NCBI GenBank assembly: GCA_008632985.1
Contig: QPGO01000075.1
Location: forward strand, 64,517 to 128,516
DNA: 64,000 nucleotides
Direction of reading: 5' to 3'
From: Psammoneis japonica
Taxonomy: Eukaryota
Part shown: one piece after another, positions 1-51,191 of the stretch
Layout: each line of letters starts with the position of its first letter
How positions within the stretch are numbered: position 1 is the first letter of the stretch
The notes under the pieces: model-generated
Seen by the model: the letters and a program-made list of their open reading frames with translations, nothing else
What the model was told of the DNA's origin: nothing
The model's database searches: none
Position numbers and translations under genes: made by a program

Positions 1-2620
1 AAAGAGCATTGTTGAGCTGGGAGGGATGTCAAGGCTCCTGCCACAACAGCCACAACCAAGTGTGGAATGCATCTTAATGCCTGCTTTTAAAGAAGCTTGC
101 AGGTCCAGGGTGTGCACAATTCAGAGGAGCAGCACACATTGTGAAAGCTGTGCTTGCCTCTCTAAATTCTGTCAGAAGCTGGACATTGTGGGGTGGCAGG
201 TCAGCACATGCACAGACAACTCTTCTTCACTGCACACTCTTGCAACTCTGCTGGCAGCAGCATGGCATTCAAAGGGATGAGGTCAAGATGAGAATTTTGG
301 CAACTGACATCTCTGGGACTGGCCCATTGTGAACAAGCCATTGCCAGCTGGAAATGTCACAGGGCCCACCAGCACCCTGTTGGCAAGGAGCAAAAAAGGA
401 GCATGAGATGTTTTTCAAAGCAACTGCTGCATGTCTTTTGCAGAGCAGTGCTGTTTCAACAAGTTGCTTTTAGAGCAAAGAGCATTGCTGACCACCCTCT
501 GGCTCAGAATTCTTGCTTGTTGTGCATGAGAGCTGTCAAGGCTGCCACAGCAGTCACAACCAAGTGTGGAGTGCATTTTGATGCCAGCTTTTAAAGCAGC
601 AGTTTGCAAGCCCAGGATGCACACAATTCAGAATGGCGCACTTTGTGAGAGCTGTGCTTGCCTTTCTGGGTTCTGCCAGAAAAGTCAGGCATGGGTCAGT
701 GGGGTGTCAACACATGTGCACACTTGTCTTGCAGCTCCACTGATGACATTCAAAGGGATGATGTCAAGATGAGAATTTTGGCAAATGACATTTCTGAGAC
801 TGGCGGCCCTTTGTGGATGAGCCATTGCCAGCTGGAAATGTCACATGGCCCACCGCAGCACCCTGTTTGCAAAGAGCAAGAAAGGGTCATGAGATGTTTT
901 TTCAAGGCAACCACTGAACATCTTTTGTGGAGCAACGTTGTTGTTCAACAAGTTGTTCTCAGAACAAAGAGTGTTGCTGACCACCCTCTGGCTCAGAATT
1001 TTTTTCATTTGTGTGTGTGTGTGTGTGCATGGGCAAGTGCCAGATGGGCAAGTGCTGCTCACATCATCTGGGGGTGTCTCTCTTTTTGTGGGACCTTCTT
1101 GTTCACCAGGTTGTCTGCGCAAGAGTGGCAACGACAATCAACTCAGTGCAAAAAACCACCCTTCATGTGAACACCACACACAGCAGCACTGCCACACTCA
1201 ACAACCAACAACTTGCTCACATTGTTGCACATCTCTTGTTCCTCACTCCATGCTGGTCAGCGCCACCACAGGAAGAGCTGCTGGTGTTTGGACACAGTGT
1301 TGTCTCACTCTGAATTCAACAACTGCAATTTTTTTTGCAAGTGCAGCAGCAGATTTTGGAGTGCAGGTGTTTAGAAGATTGAAGTGCATCAACTGTTTGA
1401 TGTCTTTTCACATCCAATGCACATCATGTCCCACAGCTTGTTCATTGCTGCAATGTGAGTGTGCAAAAAAGTGCACCAGTGGCTTTTTTCTCTCTCAGCT
1501 GCACAAAAAATGTGCACACTCTTGTCAACTGGATGCTGGCAACACATGATTTTGTTTGTGGCATTGCTGGGGTTGCTCTTGGTGCTGCAATCACTGAAAC
1601 TTGTGCTGCTCTGGCCCCACAGTTTCAAGCTGGTGTGTGGGGATCTCTGGGGCAACAAAAGCTCTGCCAAGCAACAACAGCACATGGAGAAAGACATGCA
1701 AAGTGCAGGGGCTGGCCTGCTGCAACAGATTGGCTTGATTGGCAGCACCCACAAGTGAGCCAAAACAGCCAGAAAAGCATGGCACAGCAGCATTGCACAA
1801 CTCAAGAAGGATTTGATGATGGACATGGTGGCAGGAAAAGTGTGCACGATGTTTGCCCCACTTCCTTTTAGCTTGTTGTTTCTTGCACATTGTCACGCGA
1901 TCTCTTTTTTTGTTGCAGCATGTTTTCTTCACAAGTGTTGAAGAAACTGGGACACAAGCAAGGCTGTCAATTGGGCTGTTGGAAGGGATGCATGCACGTG
2001 GGGTTGTCATGGCAAGGATGAGAGTGGAGGAGAGCTGCACGCGCAGAGACAAATTTCTGATGCAGCTGCTGGCTGCCTGAATCAACAGATCAGGCAGCAA
2101 AAGAAGAGCTTCCATGCAAGAAATCTAAAAAGCAACCAGAGCCAAGCAAAGTTGAAAACAATGTGGGGCAGTGTGAAATTTGGCGCCAAACAAAGTTGTG
2201 CAAGAGCAGCGTGGTGCGCACTCTCCTCTCCAATCTGGTGCGCTGTGTTGTTGATGCTTTGGCTCTGGCCAGTGTCAGCAGATTGATGGCAGAGCTGCCA
2301 AAGCAATTTTTGCAGGACTGCCAGTGATGAAGTCCAGAATCCAGCAATCCCCATGACCCAGACCACCCAAATGAAAGCTGGGATTGAGTGCTTTGTTGCC
2401 TGTTGCACTTGTTTGTCTTGCCAGGTTGAGAAAGTGGCACAGGCGGGTCGCCGCTTCTGTGTCTTTGTCATTGGGTTGCCTGCTTTTCTCCTCTGTCACC
2501 AAGAAACTTCATGGATTTTTTCCCTGTCAATGACAAGGCACATGCCAAGAATGGTGAGAACCCACTGTCCGCTTGAGCTTGGGGAGGAGACTGCGGAACG
2601 AAACGAATTTCTAATTCCTT
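1..2620. other. TpA- and CpG-depleted, TG/CA-rich hypermutated block (decayed repeat or gene remnants)
   Basis: Manual scan finds only about 9 TpA in 2.6 kb, all TTAA/CTAA/TTAG, and few CpG. ORFs in all frames are Cys/His-rich with no Tyr. Normal composition resumes at about 2625. Confidence 0.9.
25..1010 (+). repeat. Diverged tandem duplication, about 500-bp unit, 2 copies
   Basis: CACAACCAAGTGTGGA at about 51 and 556; CATTCAAAGGGATGA..GTCAAGATGAGAATTTTGGCAA at about 266 and 747; TTGCTGACCACCCTCTGGCTCAGAATT at about 485 and 974. Confidence 0.85.
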
Positions 2621-2798
2621 TTGCAGATACAGTACGTCAGTCGTGAATATTATTTATTCAAATTATTTAGCCTACATTTTTGAGGAATTTGGAATGTATC
2701 CAATAGTTGGGCTTCGCATAGAAGCGAACTTCAATTTTGTGATCATTCTTATTTATCCATAGACTAAGATGCACTATATATTTCAGGGTTGAATTGGA

Positions 2799-4778
2799 GT
2801 GAACCGCATCAAAAAAGCTGGAGCAACCATGGAGGAGTTAGAGGAAGCAACGAGTTATTTGACCTTGGCGGTGGACGTGGTAGAATGGTTGTGTCAAGAA
2901 TCCTTGGAGGCTCGTTCTCCCGCTATAATGCAATCACGGATTGAGCAAGTTCACAAGGCCTTGATGCGATTAGACAATGTGCATACGTACGGCCGTCTCT
3001 ACAACCGGCTTCAAATTATTGCCTTGATTCAGGATGTATGCGCCCATGATGTTGTCAGAGACGATGAGGACAACGACGATAACGATGAATCAGAAGAGTA
3101 TGAAGAGACTCTATCGGAATATTCGAGTGATCAGTGGAGTATGATTCGAGAGCAGTTGATTCTTCTGAAATCGCTTCTGCTAAGAAAAGATGCAGACGCT
3201 TTGGTATTTCCGGATCAAGTCGACGGTAAAGTGGTTGAAGACGTCACAAGACCTCCCCGTGATTATGACTTGGATGTGGAGAAGAGCAATGACGACGTCT
3301 TTCAGGAGAAATACAAGGACGTGCTTGTTTGGCTGGATTTGCATGCTACTGTTGCCAAGTTTCGTGAAGCGCTCCAGACACTGATTTCTGATTCCAATCG
3401 GCCTCAGAATTCACGCACTAGATCCAGACACAGCAAGTCGGAGAGTGTTTTATTGAAGAAATTGGAAATTGCAGTGGATGAATACAAGAAGTCTCTTAAC
3501 GAAGTATTGGGAGACGCACAGGACTCCCCTACGCAGTATACCTTGACGAGTTTCCTGCTTCATGACTTGTACACTTCTCATTCTCAATCCGATTCAACCC
3601 ACCAATTGCCTCAGCGGCTACTGAACGATATTGACAAGGCCATGTCCAGTCACGATGAACCGCACTCATATGCCTCATTACAGGCCCAACTTCAGGATTT
3701 GCTCCGGTCGTGGTCCGATACCATCTTGACCAAGCCAACGCTTGTTCTTCTCGGATATGGAAAAACCCAAGATAAGGTATCTGCAGCGATGTGGGAAGAA
3801 GGAACCAGGGCTTTGATGGACCAAGAGTCACAAGTAGATACTCGAGAGCAAGCAACGGAAACCCATGCGACTCAAACTGAGCCAGAACCGACGGCCGTCA
3901 TTGGGACTCAAACAGAGCAGTCTCCCACGGCATCCCATGCTACGCAAACGCAGGAACAAGAGGAGCAACCCATCGAATCGCAAGGTACTCAGACTGAACA
4001 GCCACCGTCGCCTGTGAATATGCCAACGGAACAAGAGCCACCATGCGATGACGATGATTCTGTGGAAACACAGCCCTTTGAAACGCAAGACGATGACGCC
4101 TTTCTGACGCAACCTCCACCGTCGCCACCCATGTTTGAATCACAAGAAACTCCTCAGCAGTCACTAGATACTCCTCAGCAGTCCACGTCACAAGAAGAAA
4201 GCGTCTCTCTGCTTCCCTCGCAGTCGACTCAATCATCTACGAAAAAGACTCCGACGCGGGCTCGGCAGGAAGAAGTAGACGAAGAAGACAACGAATCGGA
4301 ACCATCTGTCGCACCCGCCGAAAGAACTGCTACTGTTAACGAGTCCGAGGAAGAGAACCGCCAAGTAACTGATACATCACCTCGAGACGCACCCGAGACA
4401 CAGTCTCCGTTGACGGCGACGAATCAAAATGTTCAGAATGGCAAACCTAAGAAACGACGCAACAGCACGGGATCCGTTCCAGCACGGCGTCAGCGTCGCA
4501 AAATTATCGAATGGTCCGATAGCAGCGAAGACGACGAGGAAACTATCAAGGTTCGGAAAAGCTTTTCACCAAGAAAGCCTTCAAATATGGCGCCGAAGCA
4601 GCAGAGCCGAAGGCGTTATACCGAACTCGAAAAGGAAGCGATTCGTGCTGGTGTCAAACGGTTTGGAGTGGGTGCTTGGAAGGAGATCAGAAGTTTTCAT
4701 GAGGACGTTCTGAAATCGAGAACCACTGTAAACATCAAGGATTGTTATCGAACCATGTTAAAAAAGGGGGAAGCATGA
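2799..4778 (+). CDS. Telobox-type Myb/SANT (TRF-like) protein with a central TQ/SQ-rich region; 5' end uncertain (first in-frame ATG at 2829)
   Basis: C-terminal RRRYTELEKEAIRAGVKRFGVGAWKEI...RTTVNIKDCYRTM is a single Myb repeat of TRF/telobox type. Confidence 0.8.
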   Translation: MNRIKKAGATMEELEEATSYLTLAVDVVEWLCQESLEARSPAIMQSRIEQVHKALMRLDNVHTYGRLYNRLQIIALIQDVCAHDVVRDDEDNDDNDESEEYEETLSEYSSDQWSMIREQLILLKSLLLRKDADALVFPDQVDGKVVEDVTRPPRDYDLDVEKSNDDVFQEKYKDVLVWLDLHATVAKFREALQTLISDSNRPQNSRTRSRHSKSESVLLKKLEIAVDEYKKSLNEVLGDAQDSPTQYTLTSFLLHDLYTSHSQSDSTHQLPQRLLNDIDKAMSSHDEPHSYASLQAQLQDLLRSWSDTILTKPTLVLLGYGKTQDKVSAAMWEEGTRALMDQESQVDTREQATETHATQTEPEPTAVIGTQTEQSPTASHATQTQEQEEQPIESQGTQTEQPPSPVNMPTEQEPPCDDDDSVETQPFETQDDDAFLTQPPPSPPMFESQETPQQSLDTPQQSTSQEESVSLLPSQSTQSSTKKTPTRARQEEVDEEDNESEPSVAPAERTATVNESEEENRQVTDTSPRDAPETQSPLTATNQNVQNGKPKKRRNSTGSVPARRQRRKIIEWSDSSEDDEETIKVRKSFSPRKPSNMAPKQQSRRRYTELEKEAIRAGVKRFGVGAWKEIRSFHEDVLKSRTTVNIKDCYRTMLKKGEA

Positions 4779-4891
4779 GACTTTGTGATACCGTATAATT
4801 CAGGTTCTTATCTGTGGGGACCGCTGAGATATGTCTCAGATCATGGATATCGGCATAAGAATCTCTAGCAGCGTGATTACGTGTTACATTC

Positions 4892-5947: not shown

Positions 5948-6076
5948 CGTCCCCTAAGCAAGGTACATATTGTCGTCAACGTGTAAACTTCCCAATATAA
6001 CTTTCTGCTTTCATTGACGACGTACGGGCAGAAAACTTTGATGGCGATTCACGACCTGCTGTGTGTAGCTGCGGTA

Positions 6077-6354: not shown

Positions 6355-6651
6355 TACGAAATGCACAGTACGTTGGGATTTCGCGTGAGGGCCCCTAGTC
6401 TAAATTATGGCCCCGACTCTTGTTGCCTGCACTCTTCTACCGTAGTAGCTACTTAGCAACACGCTGATAATCCCATGCTGCACCTCCTCCCTCAAACAGT
6501 GGTACCGGTATATTTTTCGATGGTGTTGTAGCAAAATGGGGATCGGCTTCATGATCAATGACACTAAATATATGGTAAGACAACGTTTAATACAGCAGCC
6601 TTATTAACCTTCAAAAGAAAAAAACATGGAACATAGATCTCCGGAGTGAAG

Positions 6652-31705: not shown

Positions 31706-32124
31706 GTTGTTGCCAATAAGATGTACACTCTGACATCTGAGCAGTCAAATGAATTTGTTCTTCTGGAGCGAAGAAAGCATTTCCAGGAGTTCCTTACTGT
31801 TCCAATCAATCTTCAATCACTTACGTACTCACTGCTTCCCTCTTCAAGAGAAGAAAACGGGCGTCCGCCAATGAGAATGTAACTGAGTGAGTCAGCATCT
31901 ATCGGGCGGTTGTCAGTTGTCACGGAATCGACAAACTATGGCGCGGAGGACGTTGCGCGCGCGAGCAAACGAGAACGGTTGTACGTATGTCTGTGGAATT
32001 GGGTGTCAACGGAGAGACGAATGACATATTATGCCTTGCGCGCAGGTGCCCCCGCGCGAACGTCGATTTTTTTCTGCAGTCGCTCCGCTCACCGCAACGC
32101 ACAAAAAAGCACAAAAACGACGCC

Positions 32125-34031
32125 ATGACAAACAAACTCAGTCGAATGAGAGCCGGCGGCGGCTCGTCGTACTCCCACGCCCCTCAGGCAATGGCTCCAA
32201 GTCACCATGATGATGTTGTGTCACAAGATTCATCAACAGTGTCTCCAGAGCGGGACCCACCAAGAGAAAGGACCGAAGTTCCAACGCGCGCCGAAACCAA
32301 GCCGACACCACCATCAATCCCTGTACCCGATCATATTCCTGCACTACCTCAGAAGCCACTGCTGCCTCCAAAACAGAGTGAGCTTTACAAGAAGGACTTG
32401 TCGGGTGCTGTCACAAAGCCAAGGGGAAAGAAGGTTGCCCCCCACACAAATGCAGTCGTGCTGGCGAACGAGCGCATTGAAAAATTGGAGAAGACTTTGG
32501 CAGAAAAGCACAACAGCCATGGACACTTGGAGGCAGCAGCGGCCACATCTGTTGATTCCATGTGTGACAATGTGAAGTCCATGCACAGCAGTCTTGTCAA
32601 GATGGCCCAGTCAAAGGCAGCGCTTCAAAACAAGTTCTGCGAAATTCAGAGCGCAAAGAATGCCGCGGTTGAGCAGTCGCGACGAGACAAGAAGGAGCTG
32701 GAGAGCATGGAAAAGGATTTGAAGAGAAAGAACAAGCAAATCAAGTCATTGAAACAGCAGCTTGTGGCAGCCAAAGAATCCAACAGGAAGAACAATGGCT
32801 CCAGCGACAATGCCTCGCAGGACGACGTGCATGAAAAGAAGAAACAAGCGAGCCTGTCACGTGTCGAAGAATTCAGGGTGAAAGAGCAAATCAAAGTTGA
32901 TTCGAAAAAGCAGGAGAAGAAGAATGCTTTAGATGCAAAGAAGGAACGCATGCAATCACTGCATGCTTCCAATGGGCAGTTCGTTGTGAGCATCACATCA
33001 TTGCTTTGTGCGTTCGTGCATCTTTCGTGTCTTTCATTTCTTTTTGATTTCTTTGACTCCACTCACTGGCCTTTTCTCTTCTTCCTCAAAAAGCTTGGTT
33101 CCGGGTGTCCAATGCCACATGGTCAGAGGCAGTCTGATGATTCCCATTGCCAAGAACAAACAAGGCGTCGTGGTCGTTCCCGCAATCGACGCCACAGCAG
33201 CAGTCATCGTGGTCATTCAAGAGGACACGGGAGCAGAGGCCGCAGCCGCTCTTGCCACAGTCCAAGCTCCAGCGATGGTGAGAGTGACTGCAGTGATTCC
33301 CATTGCTGCCACAATCGTTCTCGCTCTCGCCGCCGTCGCAGTCGCTCTCACCACCGTCGCAGCATCTCTCGCCGCGGTGAGAGAGCACTCGCGCCAGTGA
33401 CAGGGAGCACAGTCGCTCTGACAGCATCTCTCGCCGCGGCGAGAGTGCTCGCACCAGTGACAGGGAGCACAGTCGCTCTGACAGTGTCTCTCGCCGCGGT
33501 GAGAGCACTTGCGCCAGTGACAGGGAGCACAGTCACTCTGACAGTGTCTCTCGCCGCGGTGAGAGTGCTCGCGCCAGTGACAGGGAGTGCAGTCACTCTG
33601 ACAGCATCTCTCACCGCAATCAAAGTTGGTCTGGCCGAAGCATGGGTGACCAAGAAGAGAGGCGCTGTGTCACTGCTTCTAGTGGCTACAAAGACGATCG
33701 CCACTGCAACCAAAACCAACCTCCCAGCTCCTCCTCCCATGATCGTTGCAGCTCCCATGGACATGATGGAGGGCATGATGGAGGATGTGAGGAAGAGCCC
33801 GTGCATTCTGATGAAAACAGCATGCAGGAGAAGGAGAACTGCCATCCTGATGGCAAGGAGAATTCCTTTCAAAATGGCGTGGGGCCACATTCCTTCCCTG
33901 GTCCTCCAAAGAATCATCCTGCATTGACTGCACCATCCTTCTCATTGTCCAACGAGTCTGAAAGTTTGCAAGTCTACGAGGATGTTGCTTTGAACAATGC
34001 TTCTGTTGGACGTGAAGGCATGGATGTTTGA
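32125..34031 (+). pseudogene. Transposon-borne accessory ORF: coiled coil plus Arg/Ser-rich repeats; probable intron at about 32986-33093 and a 2-bp frameshift at about 33380
   Basis: Lys/Glu heptad region, then RSRSRRRRSRS and 20-aa repeats that continue in the 33642-34031 frame; Cys/His at positions where Tyr is plausible. Confidence 0.65.
33361..33617 (+). repeat. 60-bp tandem repeat, about 4.3 copies
   Basis: AG(CA/TG)TCTCTCGCCGCGGTGAGAG(CA/TG)CTCGCGCCAGTGACAGGGAG(CA/TG)CAGTCGCTCTGAC. Confidence 0.95.
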
Positions 34032-34084
34032 AGACGAATTTCTGCAGAACTCCTGCGTGAACCACTTGATGCTTTTGAAACCAA

Positions 34085-34459
34085 TCAAGACTCTCTGTGC
34101 TGGTGACCATGTTTGCATCTTGTCACCATTGCACTGTTCAGGTGTGTCAATCTAGATCCAACTCCGTCAGTTGTGGATCTGTCACTAAAAATCGCATCGT
34201 CCCTTGTGCTTTCTCGTGTGACAGTGCTCCGCAAAAAGTTAGTTTCATGTTCAAACACCCGGCACCATGAACAATGCGTGCCTGCTCTGTTCTCGCAAGA
34301 CATTGTTTTAAAGGACAGGAAACTGACAATGCTCACATCTTGCGTATTTTGTGGCTCTCGCCGGGGTAAAAGTCTAACTGCCGCATTTTTCGGATCAACA
34401 ATTTGAATCGAATGGATCCAATCTCGTAACGGCAAAGCAGCATCAATTTTTAGAGACAT
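34085..34459 (-). pseudogene. Possible third small ORF inside the transposon
   Basis: AAAAATG start (MSLKIDAALPLRDWIH...), about 124 codons, no recognised domain. Confidence 0.3.
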
Positions 34460-34767
34460 TTTTTGCGGGAAAACGCGTGTGTTTCCCTGGCATGGCAAGT
34501 CCCGGGTTTTCCACCAGCCGTCAGCCGTTGAACGGAAAGATCCAATGACCATTGATCATTGCTCAGAGGTTTTAGTCAGGATGTCAATGACTGTTCACCC
34601 TTCAAATGACATGTCCAACGGTTGGAGTTACATTGGCGTTTTCAAAAACCAGGGATTCAGTCCCGGGGTTCTGGCGCCCAGACATGCCTCTAGGGCCTGG
34701 AAGTTTCAACTGCATTTCAGTCCATTGTAGGTCATTCTACAGTGGAGCATTCTACAACAGAATGAGC

Positions 34768-35889
34768 TCAAGACACACATCCACATGCTCTGTGCATGCA
34801 GAAGACTTGGTCATGCACAATTTGGGACAACACGTCATGGGCAGCACAGGCGGTGGAATGCTCGGTGTGCGAGCGGAGCCTGCGGATCGGATGGCACTTG
34901 AGCTGTGTCACAAGTTGACACCACACAAGTTCTGCAGGGTTCCATTCAGGGGTCCTCGTTGGAAGAAACAAAACAAATGTGCCACACTCTGTCCACAGCC
35001 ATTCTTCAAGAACCGCATTTTCACCATGCACGTGGCAGGCTGCATTGTCTAGAACAAGGATGTCACCACCTCTGAGAAAGCCCCGATGCACTGCATGCTC
35101 AATCTCCATTGCAAACTGTTCCACATCATTCGGCTCATTGTGGATCCGGCAATGCACTGGGTGGGTCCTTGTGTCGATGCCGCAAAAGCCGATGACGGGG
35201 CATGTGTTGCGAAAATCAGAGGATGTGAAGGATGGCGGGACTTCCCCTGTTAGTGCATTTCGCCTTGTCCTTCGGCAATGCACTTCTGAACCTTTCAGCA
35301 GCTTCTCATCTCCGCATTTGACCCTCCACGGATCAACCTCGGCGACAACCATTGTGAACTCGCGTGCTCGTAGGATGTTGTCGGGTTTGAATTTGTCACA
35401 GGGAATGAGATTTGGCTTGCGAAGTTTCCCGCTGATTGGAAATGCATGATTCCAGAATCTGCTGATGGCAGCATTCGAAACCACTGCTCCTGTGAGGTTG
35501 CACAGATTCTCCCGACAGTTGGACAGCAAGCGACTTGGCTCGTCCAGATGTGGAATCAGAAGGACAAAAGCATCTAGACTGTCAATTGTGTTGACGCCTG
35601 GACCACACATTCGTTTCTGGTGAATCTTTCGCGGGTGAAGCACTTGGCCGCAACAGTCAAGTTCTCGCTCCACTTTGACCACAAATTTGCGGTCAACCCT
35701 GCAAACCCGAGCGACTTCTGTCAGATTCGGCCTGCCACTCTCTGACGTGTCTTGTGGTGATTGATGGACCCTCTGAACTTCGATCTTCTTCTTGATGCCA
35801 CATGCCCTCCCACGTTCATACGTTCCACCATTGTCATTGACAGCAAGTCCGCACTGGGCTGCAGTGGCGCAATCGATGTTGTTGGCCAT
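34768..35889 (-). pseudogene. IS630/Tc1-like DDE transposase (DD38E spacing), frame open but hypermutated
   Basis: GDEK...LVLDNAACH...LFLPTRTPEWNPAELVW; N-terminal HTH-like region; 1 Tyr versus about 23 Cys in 373 aa. Confidence 0.9.
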
Positions 35890-36591
35890 TTTGTTTTTTC
35901 ACGACACAATGTCTCGTCTACTTACAGCCTGCTCAAGCCACACAATGTCCCGTGTAATGCTGAATCATCAGAATAGATGGGTGCGACTGCAAGGGAGGAA
36001 CATGGAGATGCGACAAAGAATGAATTGCACAGAAAAGTGCAGCATTTCGGTGACATCCAAGCACAACAAATCCTGGTAGATTTCTCGAGTGTCTCTTCAA
36101 ATCTTCACAAGACCTTCAAGTGATATAATCTTAGGGACTAGTATAGCGTTTCCGACTGGTCAAACTATCACGATAATCGTCCAATTACTTACAATCAACG
36201 ACAAGATGCCATCCGGAGTCGTTTTTCGGGTTTTTTTTAGCGAGCGCGTGTCGGAGGGAGTCGAAAAAATTCTTGTGTGTCCGCGCGGGGGCACCTGCGC
36301 GCAAGGCATAATACGGTGCTTTACCGTAAAAGTCTCGTACGTAGAAAGATTACCATGTCTTCAACAATGTACGTGGTGGACATCGACAGCTCACAAAATT
36401 GCCGCCAACACGCATTTCATCGAATCCAATTTGGAAATTCAGCACAGGCTCTGCGTGTGTAGTTCGAACGTCTTTACGTTGTGTCGTGGTCTCTATCGTC
36501 AACTAGTGTCATCTACCATACGTGTGAAGAGATCATATACGAAGAAAGAAGCAATTGTTGCCTTAGCGTTGAAAAAATCGAACAAGAAAAC

Positions 36592-39249: not shown

Positions 39250-39900
39250 CCCATCAATTCCTCGCAATCGATGTCACTGTACCACAAGCTCCCCCGCCTC
39301 CTGCACCTGGTTTGCCCGTCCCTGAAAACCCACTCAACAAGGCTCACCTCAGCAGCACTCGGGACAAGCTCCTCGGCCGCTCTGCATCCTCTTCTCATGG
39401 TTCTGACGTCATTGACGCCATTGACCAAGCAGGCCTCTTCCTCCTCCCTTCTTTTACCTTCGACCACCTCGGAGGCATTGGGTGTCACTTCCATGTCTTC
39501 TTCTTTGGCGCCTCCACCACCACCTCCTCCTCCGTCCCACCCCTTCCTCCCAAACCACCCTGGTCAAGCCCATCCTCCTTGCCCAACTCACAAGCATCCT
39601 TCTCCGCCTTCACCAACTCCCTTTTGGCTCCTTCCAACCTCCTCGCCCAATCCAACGCGGCCTGGAAACAACTTTCACCCAACCACTTTGGCTCCTCCTG
39701 TCATGCAGCAACACCCCCACTCTGGGCCTCCCAAATCCTCAGTCTCAATTTCGGCTTTGCTCTTTCCAACCGCCTTTCTACATTTTAAGCTTTCCTCCTC
39801 CGCCACCCCACTGTCACCAACTCCTCCTCACAACCATCTGTCGCACCCTCGGCCAACCCTTTTTCTCTCCCTCGCCAAGCGCGACCACCTGTTTCCCCAC
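39250..39900 (+). mobile_element. 3' fragment of an RLE-type (CRE/R2-like) non-LTR retrotransposon
   Basis: FLAIDVTV...RDKL...FLLPSFTFDHLGGIG resembles the restriction-like endonuclease C-terminus; strongly C-rich sense strand; no RT upstream, so 5'-truncated. Confidence 0.6.
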
Positions 39901-41095
39901 CACGACAACTGCCAACCCCACGGACATCACAGTTGGTGAAAACAAAGTGACAGTGATTGAGAAATTTAGCAATGGTCATCACACAAACAAAATCTCTCAG
40001 AAATTCTTTCGTGCTCATTTTTTGCTCACAACTCGTCATCTCACATGATGTGTTTGTTGTTTGCCAAGCAGGGATGCAGGCGATCGCCCAGGATGGCTCG
40101 CCCTTCTTATGGACAATGGAAAGTCTTCTCTTGTTTGGCAATTGCACAACTCATTTAGCTTGATGGCGTGTTGTCTCCAGGTGGCACAGGTGTTGCCAGT
40201 CAAGTCCGGAGGTCGGGGCAAATCAAGTGCGTGTCTCCGGCCCAGAGCCCACATCATTCCTGTGTCTTTGACCGCAGGAAGTTGCCTGTTTGCTTGACCC
40301 GTCAGGTCACGGCTGTTGAAATGGACAGCAGCGTTCATCTGCAAAGCAGCAAAAGCTTGCCAAGCAGATCATGCCATTGACGGAATGTGGGGTTTGGGGT
40401 TCCGTCGCATCAGCGACATGATGCGGCAAGTCTTCACTCACAGGGGAGTGTTGATTTGGCACGCGGTTGACTCGCAAGTCATCTTGTTGTCTCTGCAGCA
40501 CATCCCCCCTTTTGCATTTTTTAGAGTGATGCTTCACTCTGAAGATGCACAAAAGCTTGAGATCCATCTTTTTTGATGGCGCTCTTGAGGCATCATTGCC
40601 CTGCATGACCAATTTCCACATCAACTTTTGACATTTCTGTGTTTCAAATTTTCGAAACGCGCTTTGAACCTTTGCAACAGATGTGGAAATGCCAAAAGCA
40701 AGACATGACAATCTTCGTTGGCATGCCATTCATTCTGCACATGCGTCAATGGACTGCGATGGCAGTGCTTGCAATGTCGTTGCACAGCTCCTTGCCTGGG
40801 GTCCATGATGGGGTGTTCGTTGCGGTGTGAAGGCTTGTCATCGACATGTGGTGGACTGTTCGGTGCTGCTTGCCTGCAGCACTGCATGGGCAAGCTGTTC
40901 CTCCATGATTGCACTTGCAAGATCACGGTGGACTGACAAAGTGCAAATTCGGACAACTGGGTGCTGTCCGAACAACAGCTGTTGGCACCTGCTCTTGAGG
41001 AAAAGACAAAAGCAATTAATCGAACCCCACAGACATCAAAATGAATCTAATTCCAGGTTTCCATGCCAACGGTTCCAAGTCTGATGAGCAATGCA

Positions 41096-44070
41096 TCATG
41101 ATTGCTGTGCATGTGCCAGCTTTTCTCCATTTTTCTGGGTGTCATCTCCAGTTGACAAGGCACTGGGAGTGGTGACCATTGGCAAGTTTTTGCCGCTTCC
41201 TTCATTGCCCCCGTTTCCTTCCTCCTCTGTGCCTTCTCCATCATCAATCTCCACATGGAAATCACTGTTCAGTGCAACACCCAGTTCAACATCCCCCACC
41301 TTGTGAAGCAAAGGTTGGCAGTTGTCTGGGTGGACCTCGTTCTTTGCCTTTAAAGTCGGCTGCAGGCACTGATTGGTGATGAACAAAAAATCATCCTGGC
41401 CTTCAGCTTGATTCTTGAGATTGACCTGCAACAAGCACTCCTCTCCTGCAGGCAGAAATTCTGCAACCTGCTTGTGTCTCTGCAAATGTTAAAAAGAACG
41501 TTTGCATCAACAGCGGAAGCACGAGGGGGGCAGCCCATCCCTTTCTTTTGAGCCCAAGTGCACCCAGGAGGGTCAGCTGTCCAATGATGGTTTGTGCTTT
41601 GACATTCCCATGAAAGTGATTCAATTCTGCTGCCCATGCCTGGCTTTGCTGGGCAGTTGCAAAAGCACTTGTGCCTCCAACACAAGCACAAGATTCCAAA
41701 GCAAAACATGAGAAACCAGTTAAAGAGAGGCACCATTGACAAACAGACAAAGAACACCTTTGTGTGGAGTGTGGAGTGCGTTTGCAGAGGCAACTTCGGC
41801 ATGTGGAAGCCTGAGAGGGTTGCACAGTGGACACAAAAAGCCATGCGACCTGCGAGAAGACTCCTCCTTGGCAAGGTCAGGGCCATGACAGCATTGCAGG
41901 GCTGCCTTGAAGAGTGGCAAGAAACAAAGCATTTCGACAGTCAAGCCAACAAAGGTCTTTGCCAACAAAAGCTGCACAAAATGGGTTGACTGCCCCGGAA
42001 GGGACGTCGCCAAGAAATCAATTTGCTTGCAGGGTCACAGACAATGTTTTGAACTTCAGCCCAAATCCCTCCTGATGCAGCAGACACAAAGAAAGTTTGA
42101 ATGATCAAAAAAGAACAAGTTTTGGGAGCTGTTGGGCAACCTGTGCAGCCTGTGAAAGCGGAAATTCCACAAGCACAATCCACTCAAGCAGGGTGGGCAA
42201 TGAAAAATTGAGTGGAACGAGAAGGAGCGGAGCAAGACTTTTGAAGAAGGTGGAGAGCCATGGTTGCTTCTCCAATGAATTGGCAAGCCATGACATCTCC
42301 TGTGTGAGAGATTCAATGTTGCTCAAGGATGAAACAAATGCTGTTGGAATTGTCTGTGATGATTGAAGGGCTGCTGTCAGTGCAATGGCAAGGAGCCCGC
42401 CAGTCTGCAACTTGTGAGAGCTCCTTCCATCGTTTCTGTGAAACACATTTTCTGGATCGGGTGCATCGTGCGCATCCATGCTGAATGGTGTTGAATGATG
42501 AATCCCCTGCAATGCAGATTGCTTGGAATGAAGGTTCTTGAAACAGACAAAACCGGCATCCCGTGGCGACCCTTCCTCTTCTCCCCACACCAATGCCAAC
42601 ACGCTTGTTGCGCTGTTGTAATTCCCTCTTTTGCCTTCTTTGCAAGTTTCTTGCTCAACGTTGCACCCAGCTTGGCACCCTTCTGAAGAGAGTGGGTGAC
42701 GGATTCAGAAAAATGCGACACTGATGTCTGCAGCTTGTCCACAACGTTCCTCTTCAAGCCGCCCAATCTAAAAACTGGAGGTGTTGCTTTCTTTTCCACT
42801 GCAGCCTTCTCTGATTCTGCTGTTTTGTGAGCATCCACAACATTTTCTCCCTTTTTGACCTTTGGCAAGCTTTCTGTCTCAGCGCCTTTGCTTGTTGTTT
42901 CCTTCTCCTCTTGATCATGCTCCAATTGTAAAGTTTCTTGAGTGTCCATGAAAATGTCTTCCTGTGCTGACACCTGGTCTGTTGCATCTGGGTTGGTCTG
43001 GTGCACGCCCAATCCTGTTGATGACTCGTCTGCTTCTGCAATGTTGCAGCCATTCACGAGCACCCTTTTTGAGTGCTGCATCATGTTGAAGCTTCAAACA
43101 CTCAATGACACAGACGTCTTCTGCAATTCACTGGTTTGAGTGGGTGATTCCTCCACCGCTGCAGAATGGCCTCCTTTGTTTGCTTTCGTCACACCCTTGG
43201 TTTGTTCAATGTTGGTCAAATGCTCAAGTTTTCTGATGAGAGCCTGCCATTTGTTGACCTTGGCTTCCAACTTTGGAATTCTTAGAGCCACATGCATATC
43301 TGGCACACCATCTGTGAATGACAGCAAAAAGCATTTTAACACAGCATCCGATCAATGGCACAATCTGGAATGCCTGAATGCACATGGCACAATTTCGTGG
43401 CTCACGCTCCAACTGAAAGGCATGTCAGTGGGTCAAAAACCATTTGAACTCTTGCAAGACAAAGCACATTGTAAATCCAAAGACAATTTGGGTCGACAGT
43501 GAACAGCAGAAATGAGATGATCCGATCCTGGAGGAACATGTGCAGAGGATGATCTCACAACTGAGTCAAGCTGCACATTTTCTGGAGTGGCACGGCATGC
43601 CACAGATTGGAAAGAGCCAGATGGAATTGAACATTCCCGCCAAGAAAATCTTCGTCCAAAAGATGAACATGCAATCCAAACATGCCGAGTCCATGCCGCA
43701 TTGCTCCCAAATCTCCGTTGAGCTTGCTCGTTGAACCTTCCAAACCACGACACAAAACCACAGGTTGACGCTTCCACAATTTCAACACGGCCATTCTTTG
43801 GGACAAAGATTTGTTAGACAGCATTGAGCCAAGCAATCTCTGCATCCTTGGCTTCTGCGAAGGAGTCCCAGCTGAAGGTTCCTGGTTCCGCATCTTCCCA
43901 CCCCCATCCGCACCTGGACAGCGACTTGCAAGAACAAAGATTTTTTTACACCACCTGTGTTGACACACCATGACAAAGAGAAATGCCTCATGAGCAAATG
44001 CGAAGCCTCCAAACAACCTTTCCAGGCAAGCTGTGCTCACTGTCCGCTGATGGCAGACAGTGACCAGCAA
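41096..44070 (-). pseudogene. Decayed OSCA/CSC1/TMEM63 (ERD4-like) channel gene
   Basis: Collinear fragments across frames: EQCGMDS..GMFNSIWLFPI; VALRIPKLEAKV..RKLEH; AGFVCFKNL..QSALQ..APDPENVF; TIPTAFVSSLSNIESL; ATSLPGQSTHFVQ; GPDLAKEE; PLFNWFLMFCF..RHK; QCLQPTL. Confidence 0.85.
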
Positions 44071-46059
44071 AAGCCATCATCATCTTCTGTCGGCAACGCA
44101 CCTTGATCTCAAACAGTCGCTGCAGTTGCATGAATGCCACTGTGGCACAAAGCAAACAGAGTGCGTGGCTGCAGAAAAAAGGCCTGCACACAACCGTCCT
44201 TTGGCCCCAGCACACCTCTTGCACAGGACTGAAGCTTTGATTGTTCTGGAAAAGGGCCTTTCACTGGAAAATGGAGTTTTGAACCATCTTACATTGCAAG
44301 ATGAGGGACAAAACTGCAGCAAGATTGTGTGTGCTCTTGAATGTCTTGGGCACACAAATCTGGACACAACACCCAACATGCAATCGCTGCATGCTTTTCT
44401 TGCATTCCTGCAAGGTGCGCTGGAGAAGACCCCCCACCAAGGCTTCCAACTGTCCAAACTCAAGGGCGGCCCTCTTGACAAGAGCTCTCTGGTCCTCAGC
44501 ATGTCATGTGACAAACCTTGCATGTTGAGTTTCTCCCAATTAAAAAAAGTCTGTCGATCCCTGCGGAACCACTTGATGACAGTGTTGCGCGTTTGTGGGG
44601 AGCTCACTTGAGAAGAGTCCAATGAACTGTGGAACATCACTCAAAGAGTTGCAATGATGCACAGCCAGGTGTTTGATCATGACCAACGGCGCCACTGGGG
44701 CAGACAAGACAGCATCCATCAGAGCTGTGCACTGGTGCATCATGGTGATGGCAGCACGAATGCGCCGATGCCGCGTGCTGCAAAAACGATGATGACATCA
44801 CGATTTTTTGGTGGGAAAGTTGGCCTCAAAGCAAGTGCGCTGCATGGCACATCTTTCAGGAGGACAAAATCTTGCAGCCAAGAATCATGGCATGGCAATG
44901 AGCCATCAAAGCTGCTGCGGCAAAAAGGTGGCATGCGCTGCTGCCAATGGAGAACACTGTTGGTGACATGCTCTGGCACCAGGGAGATGAGAGTCACATT
45001 GCTGTGCCTGCTGCTCAGGAGAGATCATGCACTGCTGATGCCACATGCTGCCACAGGCAGAGCAAATGGCAGCCATTGTGCCAGATCTTGCCAAAATGAG
45101 AGGAGCAAAGAAGCAATGTGGCAGTTGAGGCCAGCAGACATTGGTTGGCAGGTTTCTTCCATGTGAGACTCTTGTTCTTGAAGAGGGGTTTGACAAGGAC
45201 TTTTTCTGCTGCCCCTTGCTGCCTGCTGCCAGGATGACAGGTTGCACCATTTTGGTCTTCTCAACTTGGAGGAGATGGGAGAAGCTCAATGCTGTGTGTC
45301 CCCATCTCATCAAGAAACCAAACTCACCAAGAAGCACTCTTAGGGGGGGGAAGGGGGGGGGGGGGGCAGATGAGCTGAGGACAGTGGTTGTTGTGAGCAC
45401 AAATCCTCACCATGCTTTGCCATTGCAAGACTCTCATGAAGGCAAAGTGTGTTGCTTTTGCTGTTGGACCTGAGCCCATCCACTCCACTGTCTGTGTTGG
45501 ACCTGAGTCCCCTCCCATGCATGTGTGCTGGCTTTCCTTTGTCTGCCATGTGAAAAGGGTGTTTCTTGACCCAGATGTTGTTGAGTCATGCGCCAGCAGT
45601 CATGCCATGAAAAATGGCATCAAAATGCCCACAAGCACATGTTTGTCATGACCCTTCAAACAATGGCAACATTTGACAGAAGCAAGCAGATGCTGACCCA
45701 ACTCACCTCTTGTTGCACTGGGTGATCATGCCCATCTTGGTCACATTTCATTTGCCTGTTGACTTTGTTTGATGACTCCACTCTCTGTGGCAGCTGGGGG
45801 TCACATGCAAGCACAGCCCATGCTCATCACCTTGGGCAGGCCAAGTGATGAATCCTGCCAAAGTCAGAGCCTTTGGTCAGTGCTGCTGGAAATTGTCTCG
45901 CTGTTTGTTTCAATGAACTTCCCAAGCTGTTTGACAAGGCCAAGTTTGAGAAATGTTTTTGTGTTGTCACACAAACCTGCATGGGCAACAAGTGTTCACC
46001 CTGTTCCTGGAAAGACAGTGAGACAAACACAACAGCCATTTGCGCCAAATTGAGAAATC

Positions 46060-46735
46060 AAATCTTCCAAGTCTCTTTCCCCAGACACCAGGCAACACAA
46101 CCCTGCAACTGTCCGCTGCAGCTCTCAAAGTGTTGCCTGGCACTCATCAAAATTCCCAGAGCCTTTTCAGCCTGCAGGTGGGGCCGGTTTTGGCTGGTGG
46201 GCTCCACTTTGATCTCCAGCACCACAGGTGGCATCAAATTTCAAGTCCCCTCCCACAGACAAGAAGCAGGCTACAAAGTGGCTGTTGGGACAAGAGACCA
46301 ACCCTGGAGCTGTCCCCCACCACAGTTCTCAAGTTTTGCATGTGCTGGCACCCAACAAATGCCCCAAGAGCCTTCAGCCTGCATTTGTTGCTTTGGCTTT
46401 TGGGTCCCAACCAATTTGACCTCCAGCACCACAGCACCAGCACCAAATTTTAAGTGTCTCCTCTCACAAAGACAAGCAGGAGGTGTGGCAAGCGGCTGTG
46501 CAGACAAGAGATGATGTTAAATCTGCAGCTGTCTGTTGCAGCTCTTGAAGTGTTGTGCCTGGCACTTGCCCTCTGATGTCCCAAAAGGTTTCAGCCTGCA
46601 GTTGTTTGGCTGGTGGGTCTTGCTCTGACCTCTGGCACCACAACCAACATCAAATTTCAAGTTTCTTCCCACAGACAAAGCAGCAGGCAGCAAAGTGCTG
46701 GCTGCAAGGGCAAGAGATTGACCACGCAGCTGCCT
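46060..46735 (+). repeat. Diverged tandem repeat of about 205-210 bp (about 3 copies; a further related copy at about 47200)
   Basis: CAAATTT(C/T)AAGT at about 46235, 46444 and 46651, each followed by ...GCAGG...GGCTG...CAAGAGA; related CAAATTTCAGGT...GTGGCTGCATGGGCAAGAGA at about 47207. Confidence 0.75.
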
Positions 46736-46762
46736 GACATGGCGCTTCTTGAAGCATCTCCT

Positions 46763-47022
46763 GGCCTGTTCAGGCTCCAGGTGATCTGCTTTTCATCACG
46801 CGAGAGGCCGATTTTCTGCGCAGTTTAGCGCAATTGACTCCTTCAATTTTGATCGTTTTGAAAATCGAAAGGTGAGTGTACACCCGAAAACACATGCAAA
46901 GTGTGCACTTGCCCTTCGATTTGGCAAAAAACGGATTTGGAAAAAGCCAATTGCGCCCAATGCACAAATTTCCAGATGATGGGAATCGAACCCGCGCGGA
47001 GCACCTGGAGCTGGAACAGGCC
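46763..47022. repeat. Imperfect inverted repeat of about 260 bp, CpG-retaining
   Basis: GGCCTGTTCAGGCTCCAGGTG...GCGCAATTG...AAATCGAAAGGTGAGTGTACAC pairs with GTGTGCACTTGCCCTTCGATTT...CAATTGCGC...CACCTGGAGCTGGAACAGGCC. Confidence 0.8.
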
Positions 47023-47969
47023 TCCTGGCACCCACCAAAGAGCACCCTCAGCCAGAGCTTTTCTGCAGCTGTTGCTCCAACACAGCTCTGAAACAAGCAC
47101 TGCCTGGCACCCACCACCACAAATGCACCAAGTGCCTTCAGTTTCCCACACAGTTGTTTGGCTTGTGCACATGGCCCATTTTGACCTGCAACAGCTTTGC
47201 CTGCACCAAATTTCAGGTCTTTTTTTCTCGTGGTTCAAGTGGGCAACAAGTGGCTGCATGGGCAAGAGAGCAGCAACCCTGCAGCCAGTTGTCAACTTTT
47301 GCCTGGTGCCCACCAAATCACCCTTGGAGACTTCAACAAAAAGCTGGGCCATTTTTGCCACACTGTGTTTGCACAGCCAATTTTGTCATGTGCAGGCTTT
47401 GCGACATTTCTCACAAAGGATGGCACAACTGACATGGCGGGACATCTGAAAATGACTCTGGATCTTTCTCTGTCAGTGTCCCCAGCCCTGTGGATGCTGC
47501 GCCCAGTCATGTGGCACTCTGGCGACCTCACCTCCCACTCTCCTGCACTCCCCAATGATTCAAAATGCTCTTGTCTCCACCCAAAAGTGGGGACTTTGAC
47601 TTCCTGGTTTGATGATCTTAAATTGCGTGTGCTGTTGAGGCACCCACAATTGCAGATTGTTTGATTTCTGTTCAAGCTGTGATGGGTGGCAGGCAGCGGC
47701 AGCTCGGATGATGTTTTGATGCCACACTTGGCTGGATGGACTGTGATGGTTGACGGCACACCATTGGCAGATTGCGCTGCAAATGACACCATGTTGCCAG
47801 TGCTCCAGTGCTGGCTAGATTGGGGTGCTTTGCATGAATTGTTTTGACCTCTGCAACAAATGTCTGGCTTCTCAGCTGCATGTCTGTCTGGTGCTTCTGT
47901 TGTTGTTCATTGGGTCAAAGGTCACCAAGATTGCACAGCACCCCCCAAATCTCTTTCTCTTCAAGCTGA

Positions 47970-50690
47970 GCCAAGTGCTCATGATGATGAGTTTGCTGCT
48001 GATGGATGCCAAGGCCAAGGTCTGTTTTCTGGCAACACCTCTCTGGCTCCTTGTGAGCCACACTGCACTGCAAACTTGGTCATTTGGGGCTGCTCTGTTG
48101 CTTCCACATGCAAGTCACTCCCGCAACATGAAGCTTCCATTCCAGCTCTTTGACTGCAGCACATGATGGGCAACAAGTGTGGCTGGTCAGATGAGCTGCT
48201 CACCTTGATTGATTGGACAATGCACTCCAAGTTGATGTCTTGTGATGTTTGCCACAAAGTCAGCACAGTCAAGCTGGTGTGTGAGGCTTGCCACCCACGA
48301 ACAAGACAGCCAATTGCTGCAACCCACCACTCACCCAGCCAGATTGTTGTACCTGTTGTGAGCATCCCATGGAGCACTGGGATTGTGCTCTTCATTGTCC
48401 TCACAACAAAGCCTGGCACAGGAAGTTTGTTCTCCAAGGAACACACAAAAAGTGCAGCAATGTTGATGTCTCCTCACCCTCCAAGCATGACTTGCTCCAA
48501 CAGTCTGCTCTGTCCTGATGAGATTCTTTTGACAACATGAAAGCGGTTGCCAAGACAGTGTGAGTTGGTGGCATCTTTTTCTTGATGGCCGCTTTTCTTC
48601 TGTGGTGCAAAACTTGGGCATCACACTTGCTGATCAGTGGATTGCATTGCAACCAGAATTCAGGGGAGTCAATGATTGGGTTCGGCAGCAACAACCTGTG
48701 CTTTTGTTTGGTCTCAGCAGCAGGAGCTGGGGGGCTCAGTGCATGGCAATTGCTCTCATGGCCACAACTTTGTCAACCAGGAAGTCAGCTCAGTGACACA
48801 AAGGATGATGAGGTGCACTTGTTTGGCTCATTTGAGAAACATCTTGCTCACTCCATGCACACATGGACTGTGCAGCTGGTTGGCTGCAGTGAAACCCATG
48901 TTCAACAGGTTGACTCAATGTTTTGCCACTGGGCAAATGGAGCCACATCAGAGGCTGCAACATGGGGATTTTTGCTTTCCTCCTTCACAAGCTTTGCATC
49001 TTTTGTTGTCACAAATGTTTGCAAATGAAAAGATCAAAATCCCAGTGACAGCAGTTGATGCAATGTGTTTGCATTTGACATTTCCATTTCAGTCTCAATT
49101 GACTTTTCTGAAAACTGATTGATGCAAACATGTTTGTTTTTGACAATGATTTTAATTGTCACCAAGTTTTTGTGGTGCACCTTTTTGCTTTTCATTGGAT
49201 TTTTGCAGTTGAACTTGGTTTTGACTTTGTTTCTCCCACTCATGTGCCTGTGTTGTTGGCATGTGCAGCACGTGCTTCCCTGCGCTGCGCTGCACCTTGT
49301 TGCCCCTGCAAGCTCAAGTGGCCACCACACACCCCAATGCATGTTTCCCTCTTGCTTTCTCAGTGTTGCGTGCCACATCCTCCCGTTGTGTGATTTTTTC
49401 AGCATTTTGCGATTAAATTTTTACACATTTCATGACAGCACACCCTCTCCCCAAATGCCAAAAGAAGAGCATGTGCTGCGGTTGTGATTCACATGCATTT
49501 GACATGATGCCACCAACCGACAACAGGCCATGGTGGCGAATGACTTTGCCCTGTCAGCTGACAAGGTCAGCCCCAATTCCTTGTTTGTCCTCTTTGATGA
49601 CAATGTTGATTTTGACAACATTGAACATTTTGCTTGTGGTTTTGGCATGGAGTTGTTTGGACAAAAGTTCAAAAGCACAGCAGCTGCAACATGTGCCTCC
49701 TCCAAAAAGCAGCTTGTGGAGCAAACAAATTGGGCACCATCTCTGGAATTCCTTGCACTTCCCTTCCTTTGCTGACAGAAAAACAAGCTGAGGAAATGCT
49801 TGGGCAGATGCAGGGTGCTGCAAGCCTGTCCAAAGGAAGACACCAATGTAAAAAATGAGGCAAAAAGAATGAGGAAGCTGAGCCAATTGAAGAACCATTC
49901 ACGCCAACTTGGGAGGGCAAGACTGTGGAAACCACTGTGGTGGGTGAAAAACTGACCAACAAGGAAGCGCATGTGTGGTTTTGCAACAATGTGCTGAAAT
50001 TCTCCAAGAGCACTGCAGCATGGAGCACAGCCAACTGCAGCAAGCAACAAAGATCCAAGCTGTTGGCACCAGAAAACTGCTGGAAAACAATGAATCACAA
50101 GGCAGCAAATGAGCAAAAGTTTTGACAGGGAGATGAAGACAAGGACAAGAAGGGAGAGAGCTGGAAACCACCAGCGCCAATGCACACAAACCCTGAGCAT
50201 CTTGTGATTCATGGGGAGATGCAGGAACAGAGTGACTCAATGAGCTGCAGCTCATGCAGATGAGCTTGCCGGTGGATGCCAAGGTCTGTTTTCTTCAAGC
50301 GACACCTCTTTGGCTCCCTTGTGAGCCACACTGCTCCATGAACTTGGTCATTTGGTGTGCTGCTCTGTTGCTTCCACATGCAAGTCAGTCCTGCAACATG
50401 AAAGAGCTTCCAGCGCCCAGCTCTTTGACTGCACATGTGATGGGTCACAAGCATGTGGCTGCTGGCTGGGTGAACCACTCACCTCATTTGATTGGACAGT
50501 GCACTCCAAGTTGTTGACATGCACAGCTGTGACACCCTGCTCACCCAGCCAGATTGTTGCACCCATTGTGAGCATTGCATGGAGGGCTGGGGCTGTGTTC
50601 TTCATTGTCCTCACACAACAAAGCTCGGCACACACAGGAAGTTTGTTCTCCAATGGCTGCACAAGAAGTGTGACGACATTGCTGTCAATG
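47970..50690 (+). repeat. Dispersed direct repeat pair (about 47970-48470 and 50240-50690)
   Basis: Shared CCAAGGTCTGTTTTCT, TTGTGAGCCACACTGC, GCTGCTCTGTTGCTTCCACATGCAAGTCA, TCACCCAGCCAGATTGTTG and ACAGGAAGTTTGTTCTCCAA. Confidence 0.85.
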
Positions 50691-51191
50691 CACCAAATGC
50701 AGGATTGAATTGGGTGGAGGATGGATGGGCAAGCAAAGGAGGGATGATGACAGATGACGATGACGTGATTGTTTCGTTTGTGTTCTTTCATTGCCAGCTG
50801 CTTTGTTCGAACGTGTTGCTGGCCTGGCATCACAGTCAGGTGGCAGCACCAATCTTGGCCAGTTGCCATGGAGTTGCAGGATGGAAGTACAGCAGCACTT
50901 TAAAAACACAGATGTTAGGTTTTGTTCTGTGTTTGCCCACCTTTCCTCTCAACTGATATTGTGTCTGTGTCTCCGAATTGTTTTAGATTCCACGGCCAGA
51001 TTGCATTGGGCGGAAGGACGGACGGGCAAAGTACAGAAGGTATGATGACAGACGACGATGACGTGATTATTTTTTGATTTGTGTTCTTTCATTTTTTTTG
51101 CCGTGTCGCCTTGAGTGTGAAACGTGTGTACCACAGGGCTTACTGTTGTTTCTGTTGTTCCTGCTGTAGTTCTTATCAGCACAAACGAGAT

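Follow-up and report, generated by a model that had tools for sequence, protein, structure and literature searches.

Neighbour context of surviving TpA steps in a TpA- and CpG-depleted block of Psammoneis japonica DNA, and comparison with known hypermutation systems

Hypermutation directed at TpA steps has been described for the chlorarachniophyte Bigelowiella natans, where 230 of the 231 mutations found in two integrated viral regions of mutation-accumulation lines were A->G or T->C (Mettrop et al., bioRxiv 10.64898/2026.01.13.699255). According to the same preprint, all GC-biased mutations in those regions lie at TpA, windows that are poor in TpA and rich in CpA+TpG form 124 clusters, DDE endonuclease and reverse transcriptase are over-represented among TpA-poor coding sequences, and ADAT2 is put forward as a speculative candidate enzyme (bioRxiv 10.64898/2026.01.13.699255). 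The words ‘trinucleotide’, ‘context’, ‘flanking’ and ‘CpG’ have 0 occurrences in its main text. A search of the full-text literature, with most subscription journals outside it, returned this preprint (2026) alone as a report of TpA-directed hypermutation. Presented here is a stretch of 64,000 nucleotides from Psammoneis japonica (assembly GCA_008632985.1, contig QPGO01000075.1, positions 64,517 to 128,516 of the forward strand), hereafter called the window, all positions being counted from its first letter. Its beginning (1..2620, no strand assigned, left edge cut by the window start) is an end-stage block, depleted of TpA and CpG and rich in TG/CA, which we call block A. We consider block A likely to be the worn-out product of a region-targeted A:T->G:C mutation at TpA, by which repeat or mobile DNA was changed in situ and on which a slower CpG loss was superimposed.

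The window shares with B. natans the change of TpA to TpG or CpA on both strands, the coupling of TpA loss to CpA+TpG gain, the confinement of the change to blocks and the presence of DDE endonuclease genes among the victims. The two differ in the host, which is a rhizarian there and a diatom-like stramenopile here, in the type of evidence, which comes from mutation-accumulation lines there and from comparison of sequences here, and in the DNA that was hit: giant-virus and virophage inserts in B. natans, but a transposon, repeats and a cellular-type pseudogene in the window. It is the same TpA signature in another lineage, and the new detail consists of a gradient set by the 3' neighbour and of the order in which TpA and CpG decay.

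Repeat-induced point mutation (RIP) of ascomycete fungi likewise hypermutates repeated or mobile DNA locally by transitions, prefers certain dinucleotides and leaves sharp-edged blocks with skewed dinucleotide indices. However, its direction is the opposite, as RIP makes TpA from CpA and creates stop codons, whereas the process seen in the window destroys TpA and cannot create them. Neither the excess of TpA nor the deficit of CpA/TpG that C->T change at CpA would leave was found in block A, where TpA/ApT, at 0.07 (9/123), and (CpA+TpG)/(ApC+GpT), at 2.05 (609/297), are both the reverse of RIP. The signature of methylation-driven CpG decay, low CpG together with a gain of TG/CA, is present in block A, and such decay would account for its CpG observed/expected ratio (o/e) of 0.16 and for part of the TG/CA excess. 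It covers one of the two depletions, though, for it cannot remove TpA, and in the younger block presented below it trails the loss of TpA. An A->G outcome is also known for two RNA editors, ADAR and Tad2/Tad3 (ADAT2/3), the latter having a strong need for U or T 5' of the A (PMC11156358). Both act on RNA, unlike the process in the window, whose product is a heritable change of DNA on both strands. A product bias towards one strand and a purine at +1, which RNA editing would leave behind, were not seen: TG and CA are equal and interleaved, and the order of preference 3' of the A is T>C>G>A. The natural site of bacterial TadA is U-A-C-G, which would fit TAC better and is mentioned here as a lead only.

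Composition of block A and evidence for TpA loss

The base counts of block A are T 678, G 676, A 667 and C 599. Nine TpA steps are left (positions 75, 88, 163, 471, 592, 1372, 1869, 2126 and 2612), corresponding to an o/e of 0.05, compared with 0.47 elsewhere in the window. Of CpG, 24 sites remain (o/e 0.16 against 0.83), and both CpA (299, o/e 1.96) and TpG (310, o/e 1.77) exceed their values in the rest of the window (1.29 and 1.28, respectively). All 500-bp bins of 1-2500 present the same composition (TpA o/e 0.03-0.12, TG/CA 1.69-2.10), and likewise those at 39.5-51 kb. The initial annotation, made from the letters alone, had listed TTAA, CTAA and TTAG, three times each, as the TpA contexts surviving in block A, none of them TAY or RTA (Y, pyrimidine; R, purine), and had described CpG as largely lost, with both losses feeding TG/CA. 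Our recount matched the nine exactly and agrees with the remainder of that description.

Block A opens with two tandem copies of a ~490-bp unit (21-514 and 528-1003, + strand, 75.7% identical) and the start of a third. The array is closed by a (TG)n microsatellite at 1010..1028 (no strand, read directly from the sequence), and the ~1.6 kb beyond it has no repeat structure. At one place of the tandem copies (163-166 against 667-670) TAAA stands opposite TGGG, an A/G run that a strictly TpA-limited process leaves unexplained. The right boundary is abrupt (2612..2628), since the isolated last TA at 2612 is followed by 14 TpA within 2628-2760, and it lies ~200 bp upstream of the ATG of an open reading frame (ORF) at 2829-4778. 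Seven of the 24 CpG are located within the last 180 bp (2440-2612), where TpA is still absent, so the CpG-poor zone ends before the TpA-poor one. A Pfam search with the 14 block A ORFs of at least 90 amino acids (aa) gave one weak match alone, below cutoff (Peptidase_M56, 16.5 bits, cutoff 31), and an Rfam search of the block gave no match at E<=0.1. Inverted repeats were not found in block A, and comparison of the block with the rest of the window after collapsing transitions showed no similarity (best 58 bits, against 52-56 for shuffles). By analogy with the other blocks of the window, from which a mobile or foreign status is taken over, block A may be an ancient repeat or mobile insertion in which both decays have run to their last stage.

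Duplicated copies carry a record of the change. The tandem copies of block A present 80 mismatches, 60 of which are transitions, and their identity rises to 87.9% in R/Y code, in which transitions are collapsed; among their 23 adjacent double mismatches, 10 are CA<->TG. A dispersed duplicate in the large block discussed below (47977-48454 against 50250-50670, + strand) has 11 such doublets out of 24, and a poorly aligned tandem of the same block (46098-46500) has three out of 27, compared with 2/40, 0/0 and 1/5 in three duplicates located in normal DNA. A CA<->TG doublet is the mark of one ancestral dinucleotide that was resolved independently on different strands. It may derive from either TA or CG, and the tyrosine (Tyr) and codon data given next show that TA is a real source.

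A sliding TpA count delimited three further TA-poor blocks, at 32351-34200, 34701-35950 and 39251-50950. The former two, with intermediate DNA at 34.2-34.7 kb, form a younger hypermutated element (32351..35950, no strand), which has lost nearly all of its TpA but retains most of its CpG. It contains the ORF of a DDE_3 (Tc1/mariner-IS630-type) transposase at 34768..35889 (- strand; PF13358, E=7.7e-9), which is still open and has its tyrosines converted. The transposase has 17 relatives at E<=1e-5, the best being 63% identical and the one named match being a diatom, and 12 of the 17 were taken into a protein alignment. Eight columns of that alignment are conserved for Tyr; in the window one is kept, three have become Cys (TGT, TGT, TGC), three His (CAT, CAT, CAC) and one Phe. 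Columns conserved for other residues are retained (Asp 10/10, Lys 8/8, Asn 10/10, Pro 13/13, all of the Trp and Leu 18/19). The protein contains 0.3% Tyr, 6.2% Cys and 5.1% His, compared with 1.1-3.9%, 0.6-3.0% and 1.8-3.1%, respectively, in seven normal ORFs. In codon alignments with eight related metagenome loci, the window retains 11 (3%) of the 352 TA sites of the relatives, compared with a conservation of 19-38% for ten other dinucleotides. Wherever one or more relatives have TA (233 window positions), CA is found 40 times in the window, TG 40 times and TA twice. The TpA o/e of 80 related transposon loci ranges from 0.46 to 0.99, and hypermutated relatives sought among these 80 metagenome loci were not found (0/80 with TpA o/e below 0.46); the transposon family is therefore not TpA-poor by nature.

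Sequencing data were available as contigs of one sample and one study. Where contigs of the same sample differ from the window, the difference is a transition at 481 of 591 places, and TG<->CA doublets account for seven of the 40 differences listed. As far as sequence comparison can tell, these data show that the TpA depletion is mutational, that it occurred in place after the copies had been duplicated and that its direction was from TA to TG/CA. The initial annotation had already attributed block A to hypermutation rather than to native composition, and this attribution is upheld by the Tyr columns, the doublets, the TpA-normal relatives and the codon alignments.

The strand symmetry proposed in the same annotation was also recovered. 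TG and CA counts are equal in every block (310 and 299 in block A, interleaved, z<=1.5), and strand-coordinated runs of TG or CA, which were sought along the blocks, were not found (same-type neighbours, z -1.35 to 1.5). The lack of same-type clustering indicates that the hits are independent and fall on either strand. A single-pass processive editor of one strand was considered and is disfavoured, strand-coordinated clusters being missing. Regarding CpG, bins at 32.5-33.5 kb have a TpA o/e of 0-0.03 and a CpG o/e of 0.68-0.96, and in bins at 45-50.5 kb both dinucleotides are lost. Since the blocks differ in CpG at a like TpA loss, two processes are indicated, the loss of TpA being the faster.

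Neighbour context of the surviving TpA steps

The four blocks together amount to 17.4 kb and retain 66 TpA. The 16 NTAN tetramers were reduced to ten strand-symmetric classes, and expected counts were taken from the rest of the window, scaled to block length. TTAA is the most resistant class (16 observed, 23.0 expected, survival 0.69), followed by CTAA/TTAG (19 observed, 63.5 expected, 0.30). Lower survival was obtained for CTAG (5 against 40.4 expected, 0.12), GTAA/TTAC (10 against 85.0, 0.12), CTAC/GTAG (9 against 100.9, 0.09) and GTAC (4 against 56.3, 0.07). The lowest values belong to ATAT (1 against 51.4, 0.02), ATAA/TTAT (1 against 94.4, 0.011), ATAC/GTAT (1 against 100.1, 0.010) and ATAG/CTAT (0 against 78.6, survival 0). 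As TTAA is the most resistant class, it is the base 3' of the A that governs and not the base 5' of the T. A model with independent strands and four escape values per strand (TAA 0.77, TAG 0.37, TAC 0.22, TAT 0.03) reproduces all ten class counts, and the fitted relative hit intensity by the base 3' of the A is T 3.46, C 1.54, G 1.0 and A 0.26. Uniform depletion regardless of flanking bases, the outcome against which the initial annotation had set its proposal, is rejected by the NTAN counts in favour of this four-class model (chi2 89, p=4e-19).

The proposal itself was that every surviving TpA is YTAR and that TAY is the target. In block A, nine YTAR out of nine has p=9e-5 under a first-order Markov model from the block's own dinucleotides (P(YTAR|TA)=0.356) and p=2e-7 against the empirical YTAR share outside the blocks (336/1836 = 18.3%). 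This hypothesis arose from block A and was hence tested on the three other blocks, where YTAR makes up 31 of 57 survivors against 336 of 1836 outside (Fisher odds ratio 5.3, p=2.3e-9); the large block at 39251-50950 contributes 40 TpA, 24 of them YTAR. The enrichment is thus replicated, but the exclusivity is not, as 26 of the 57 are not YTAR. The same holds for the target. A two-class model of pyrimidine against purine beats uniform depletion (chi2 57, p=4e-14), but purine contexts are also hit, YTAR itself being reduced to 40 observed against 126.9 expected (0.32), so TAY is not the exclusive target. Nor are the pyrimidines equal, TAT being hit far more than TAC, and the four-class gradient fits better than the two-class rule (chi2 31.7, p=1e-7). 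The earlier interpretation is therefore partly supported: it names the right kind of process but draws the rule too strictly. A gradation in the order T>C>G>A explains why TTAA, CTAA and TTAG alone remain in the oldest block. Re-creation of TpA from CA or TG would produce YTAR 22.5% of the time, and at least 40 YTAR out of 66 has p=3e-11 under that model, so fresh TpA fails to account for the pattern. The survivors support the order T>C>G>A well, and the exact values, derived from 66 of them, are rough.

Proposed process and rival explanations

The process that we propose would be targeted to regions and would change A:T to G:C at TpA steps, each TpA becoming TpG or CpA by the strand that is hit. 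It would have changed repeat or mobile DNA in situ, and a slower loss of CpG to TpG/CpA would be laid over the loss of TpA. The data show that the change is confined to blocks with sharp edges and that the chance of a hit depends on which base lies 3' of the A (T > C > G > A). The underlying chemistry may be adenine deamination in DNA, yielding hypoxanthine and carried out by a dedicated enzyme, which would be directed to silenced or foreign chromatin and could serve as genome defence, and the CpG loss may proceed via cytosine methylation of the same silenced DNA. The hypermutation blocks hold the transposase and repeats of high depth.

Several points weigh against such a process. The evidence is comparative throughout, drawn from a single 64-kb window in which 66 TpA survive, and the rest of the window, mostly genes, stands in for the ancestral make-up of tetramers. 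Nothing of mobile or viral origin is recognisable in block A, whose description as repeat or mobile DNA rests on its tandem copies and on analogy with the other blocks. The products themselves supply weak tests: tetramer ratios follow the prediction in five of six classes, one of them significantly (odds ratios 1.00-1.62), and an excess-density version of the test likewise in five of six. In the transposase, a pyrimidine lies 3' at 31 of 40 TG and 23 of 40 CA products (p=0.09, again a weak test), and no effect of the 5' flank on the product was found there (p=0.82). Moreover, the preference at +1 is A or G for Tad2/Tad3 and slightly G for ADAR (PMC11156358), the opposite of the T>C>G>A of the window. 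Given this opposition, ADAT2, the candidate of the preprint, does not fit simply.

Error-prone patch repair recruited repeatedly to silenced DNA could lead to similar products, with a polymerase of the Pol eta type misinserting G opposite T at WA (W, A or T). WA is the A->G hot spot of Pol eta, so TA->TG would be expected on either strand, and independent, unclustered hits fit many small repair events. Nevertheless, a WA polymerase should erode ApA too, and ApA is not depleted in block A (o/e 1.24 against 1.15). Transversions are a minority between the tandem copies (20/80), and all hypermutations of B. natans are at TpA (bioRxiv 10.64898/2026.01.13.699255), leaving repair of this type an unlikely source. 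A-to-I editing of transcripts or retro-intermediates by an ADAR-like or Tad2/Tad3-like enzyme, copied back to DNA, draws on the strong preference of Tad2/Tad3 for U at -1, tRNA A34 being always preceded by U33 (PMC11156358). However, the element most clearly affected is a DDE_3 DNA transposon of the cut-and-paste type, and the tandem copies diverged in place. One transcript strand would also give one product, whereas TG and CA are equal and interleaved, and the +1 preference is opposite (T>C>G>A against purine); we therefore regard editing of RNA as very improbable.

The block edges are sharp, as for insertions, and the 646-aa and 373-aa ORFs of the younger element are still open, both of which could be expected if the blocks were foreign or mobile DNA that avoids TpA natively or by selection, without hypermutation in this genome. 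Open frames are expected anyway, since TA->TG/CA makes no stop codons, and native avoidance is contradicted by conserved Tyr replaced with Cys or His where other residues were kept, by the 80 relatives with normal TpA and by the CA<->TG doublets that separate copies duplicated inside a block. Its probability seems to us close to negligible. We judge just as slight the chance of a sequencing or assembly artefact, in which heavy base modification of silenced DNA would make TA read as TG or CA. The assembly is indeed a scaffolded draft with an N run at 24918-25384, and the sequencing comes from one sample, but in independently built contigs of that sample (depth ~55) the blocks recur, with 2-9 differences per 1-2.6 kb. 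Paralogues carry different fixed resolutions, TG or CA, unlike a read-level error, and in B. natans the same signature, seen in Illumina data, was taken to be real mutation (bioRxiv 10.64898/2026.01.13.699255).

Returning to mutation at TpA, the genetic code implies that TA->TG/CA cannot turn a sense codon into a stop at any codon position; TAA would become TGA or CAA, and TAG would become TGG or CAG. Dead genes should therefore stay long open frames, damaged by missense changes, mainly of Tyr to Cys or His. This would explain why the 646-aa and 373-aa frames are open in the CpG-retaining block, as well as the hundreds of predicted TpA-free coding sequences of the B. natans preprint. A bolder idea, which we hold as tentative and somewhat short of probable, is that diatoms and chlorarachniophytes share an unrecognised enzyme of genome defence, a DNA adenine deaminase or an equivalent, with the preference 5'-T-A-N-3' (N = T>C>G>A), unlike ADAT2/3 or ADAR and the mirror image of RIP. 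It would be aimed at mobile and foreign DNA that is silenced, and would inactivate genes through Tyr->Cys/His and further missense changes without ever making stop codons. If such an enzyme were shared, algal gene catalogues would be filled with long, dead, TpA-free ‘genes’. Should the process proposed for the window be real, TpA-directed hypermutation would not be confined to one chlorarachniophyte but would also occur in a diatom-like stramenopile, a member of a group of major marine primary producers, through either an old shared defence or convergence. The gradient TAT > TAC > TAG > TAA would then be a biochemical fingerprint of the enzyme and argue against ADAT2 as a simple candidate. TpA-poor blocks, with their long open frames, would be called as genes and could be recognised by being short of Tyr and rich in Cys and His, and the fast loss of TpA combined with the slow decay of CpG could be used to age insertions.

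Other TA-poor blocks and flanking DNA

Besides the transposase, the younger element contains most of the 646-aa ORF (31987..33927, + strand), which belongs to no Pfam family, runs from normal DNA into the TA-poor block, has a Tyr content of 0.3% and includes 60-bp tandem repeats at 33360-33617. The block at 39251..50950 is an 11.7-kb mosaic of hypermutated sequence with a CpG o/e of 0-0.66, and it fills the space between two genes. Pieces of an OSCA/CSC1-type gene (RSN1_7TM, 30.4 bits with a cutoff of 28.7, and PHM7_cyt) are located in it at 41723..42704 (- strand) in two frames. They have 418 relatives (best E=9e-36), and a second version, ~90% alike, is present in the same sample. They are the remains of a cellular-type gene, now a hypermutated pseudogene, so cellular-type sequence is hit too. 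A check of Tyr in the RSN1_7TM pseudogene, for which 24 of 150 listed relatives were aligned, covered a region without a conserved Tyr column.

Summed contig depth, which is not a copy number, is ~5 to 190x that of neighbouring genes at 32.2-36.2, 38.8-40.8 and 46.2-47.5 kb, which suggests that these stretches are multi-copy families. It reaches 2500-3300 at 39504-40837 and 3100-10600 at 46174-47507, where neighbouring genes have ~55-140, and many loose contig ends are found at 47022; these two are probably short, very high-copy, TpA-poor repeat families. The TA-poor blocks end ~200-370 bp before the flanking start codons (2620-2829, 38875-39250 and 50950-51192), and the spared stretches are TA-rich. 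They may be simple insertion edges or may reflect promoter protection.

The window is otherwise gene-dense, with long uninterrupted ORFs and one gap of 467 N (24918-25384). Two of the flanking genes encode a 3-dehydrosphinganine reductase, whose named matches are diatoms and animals at similar identity, and a TPR/HAT protein, whose named matches are diatoms only. The best match overall to these two is at 53-54%, and the diatoms matched (Skeletonema, Thalassiosira, Cyclotella, Pseudo-nitzschia, Phaeodactylum, Cylindrotheca and Fragilariopsis) present 40-48% identity. Bigelowiella is not among the named matches listed for the reductase, the TPR/HAT protein or the transposase. An inverted duplicate (22474-23081/23927-24543, 72.8% identical) is located in CpG-rich normal DNA beside the N gap. 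Its differences are one-sided (A/G 66 against C/T 22; CG<->CA 22, CG<->GG 11), a pattern unlike that of the TpA blocks. Finally, in-frame tandem repeats are located at 61676-62161 and 62676-63101, with units of 69 bp (seven copies) and 213 bp (two copies). The ORF region in which they lie is purine-rich with an AT skew of ~+0.4, and the repeated unit encodes a basic KRKPGRPRK-like motif.

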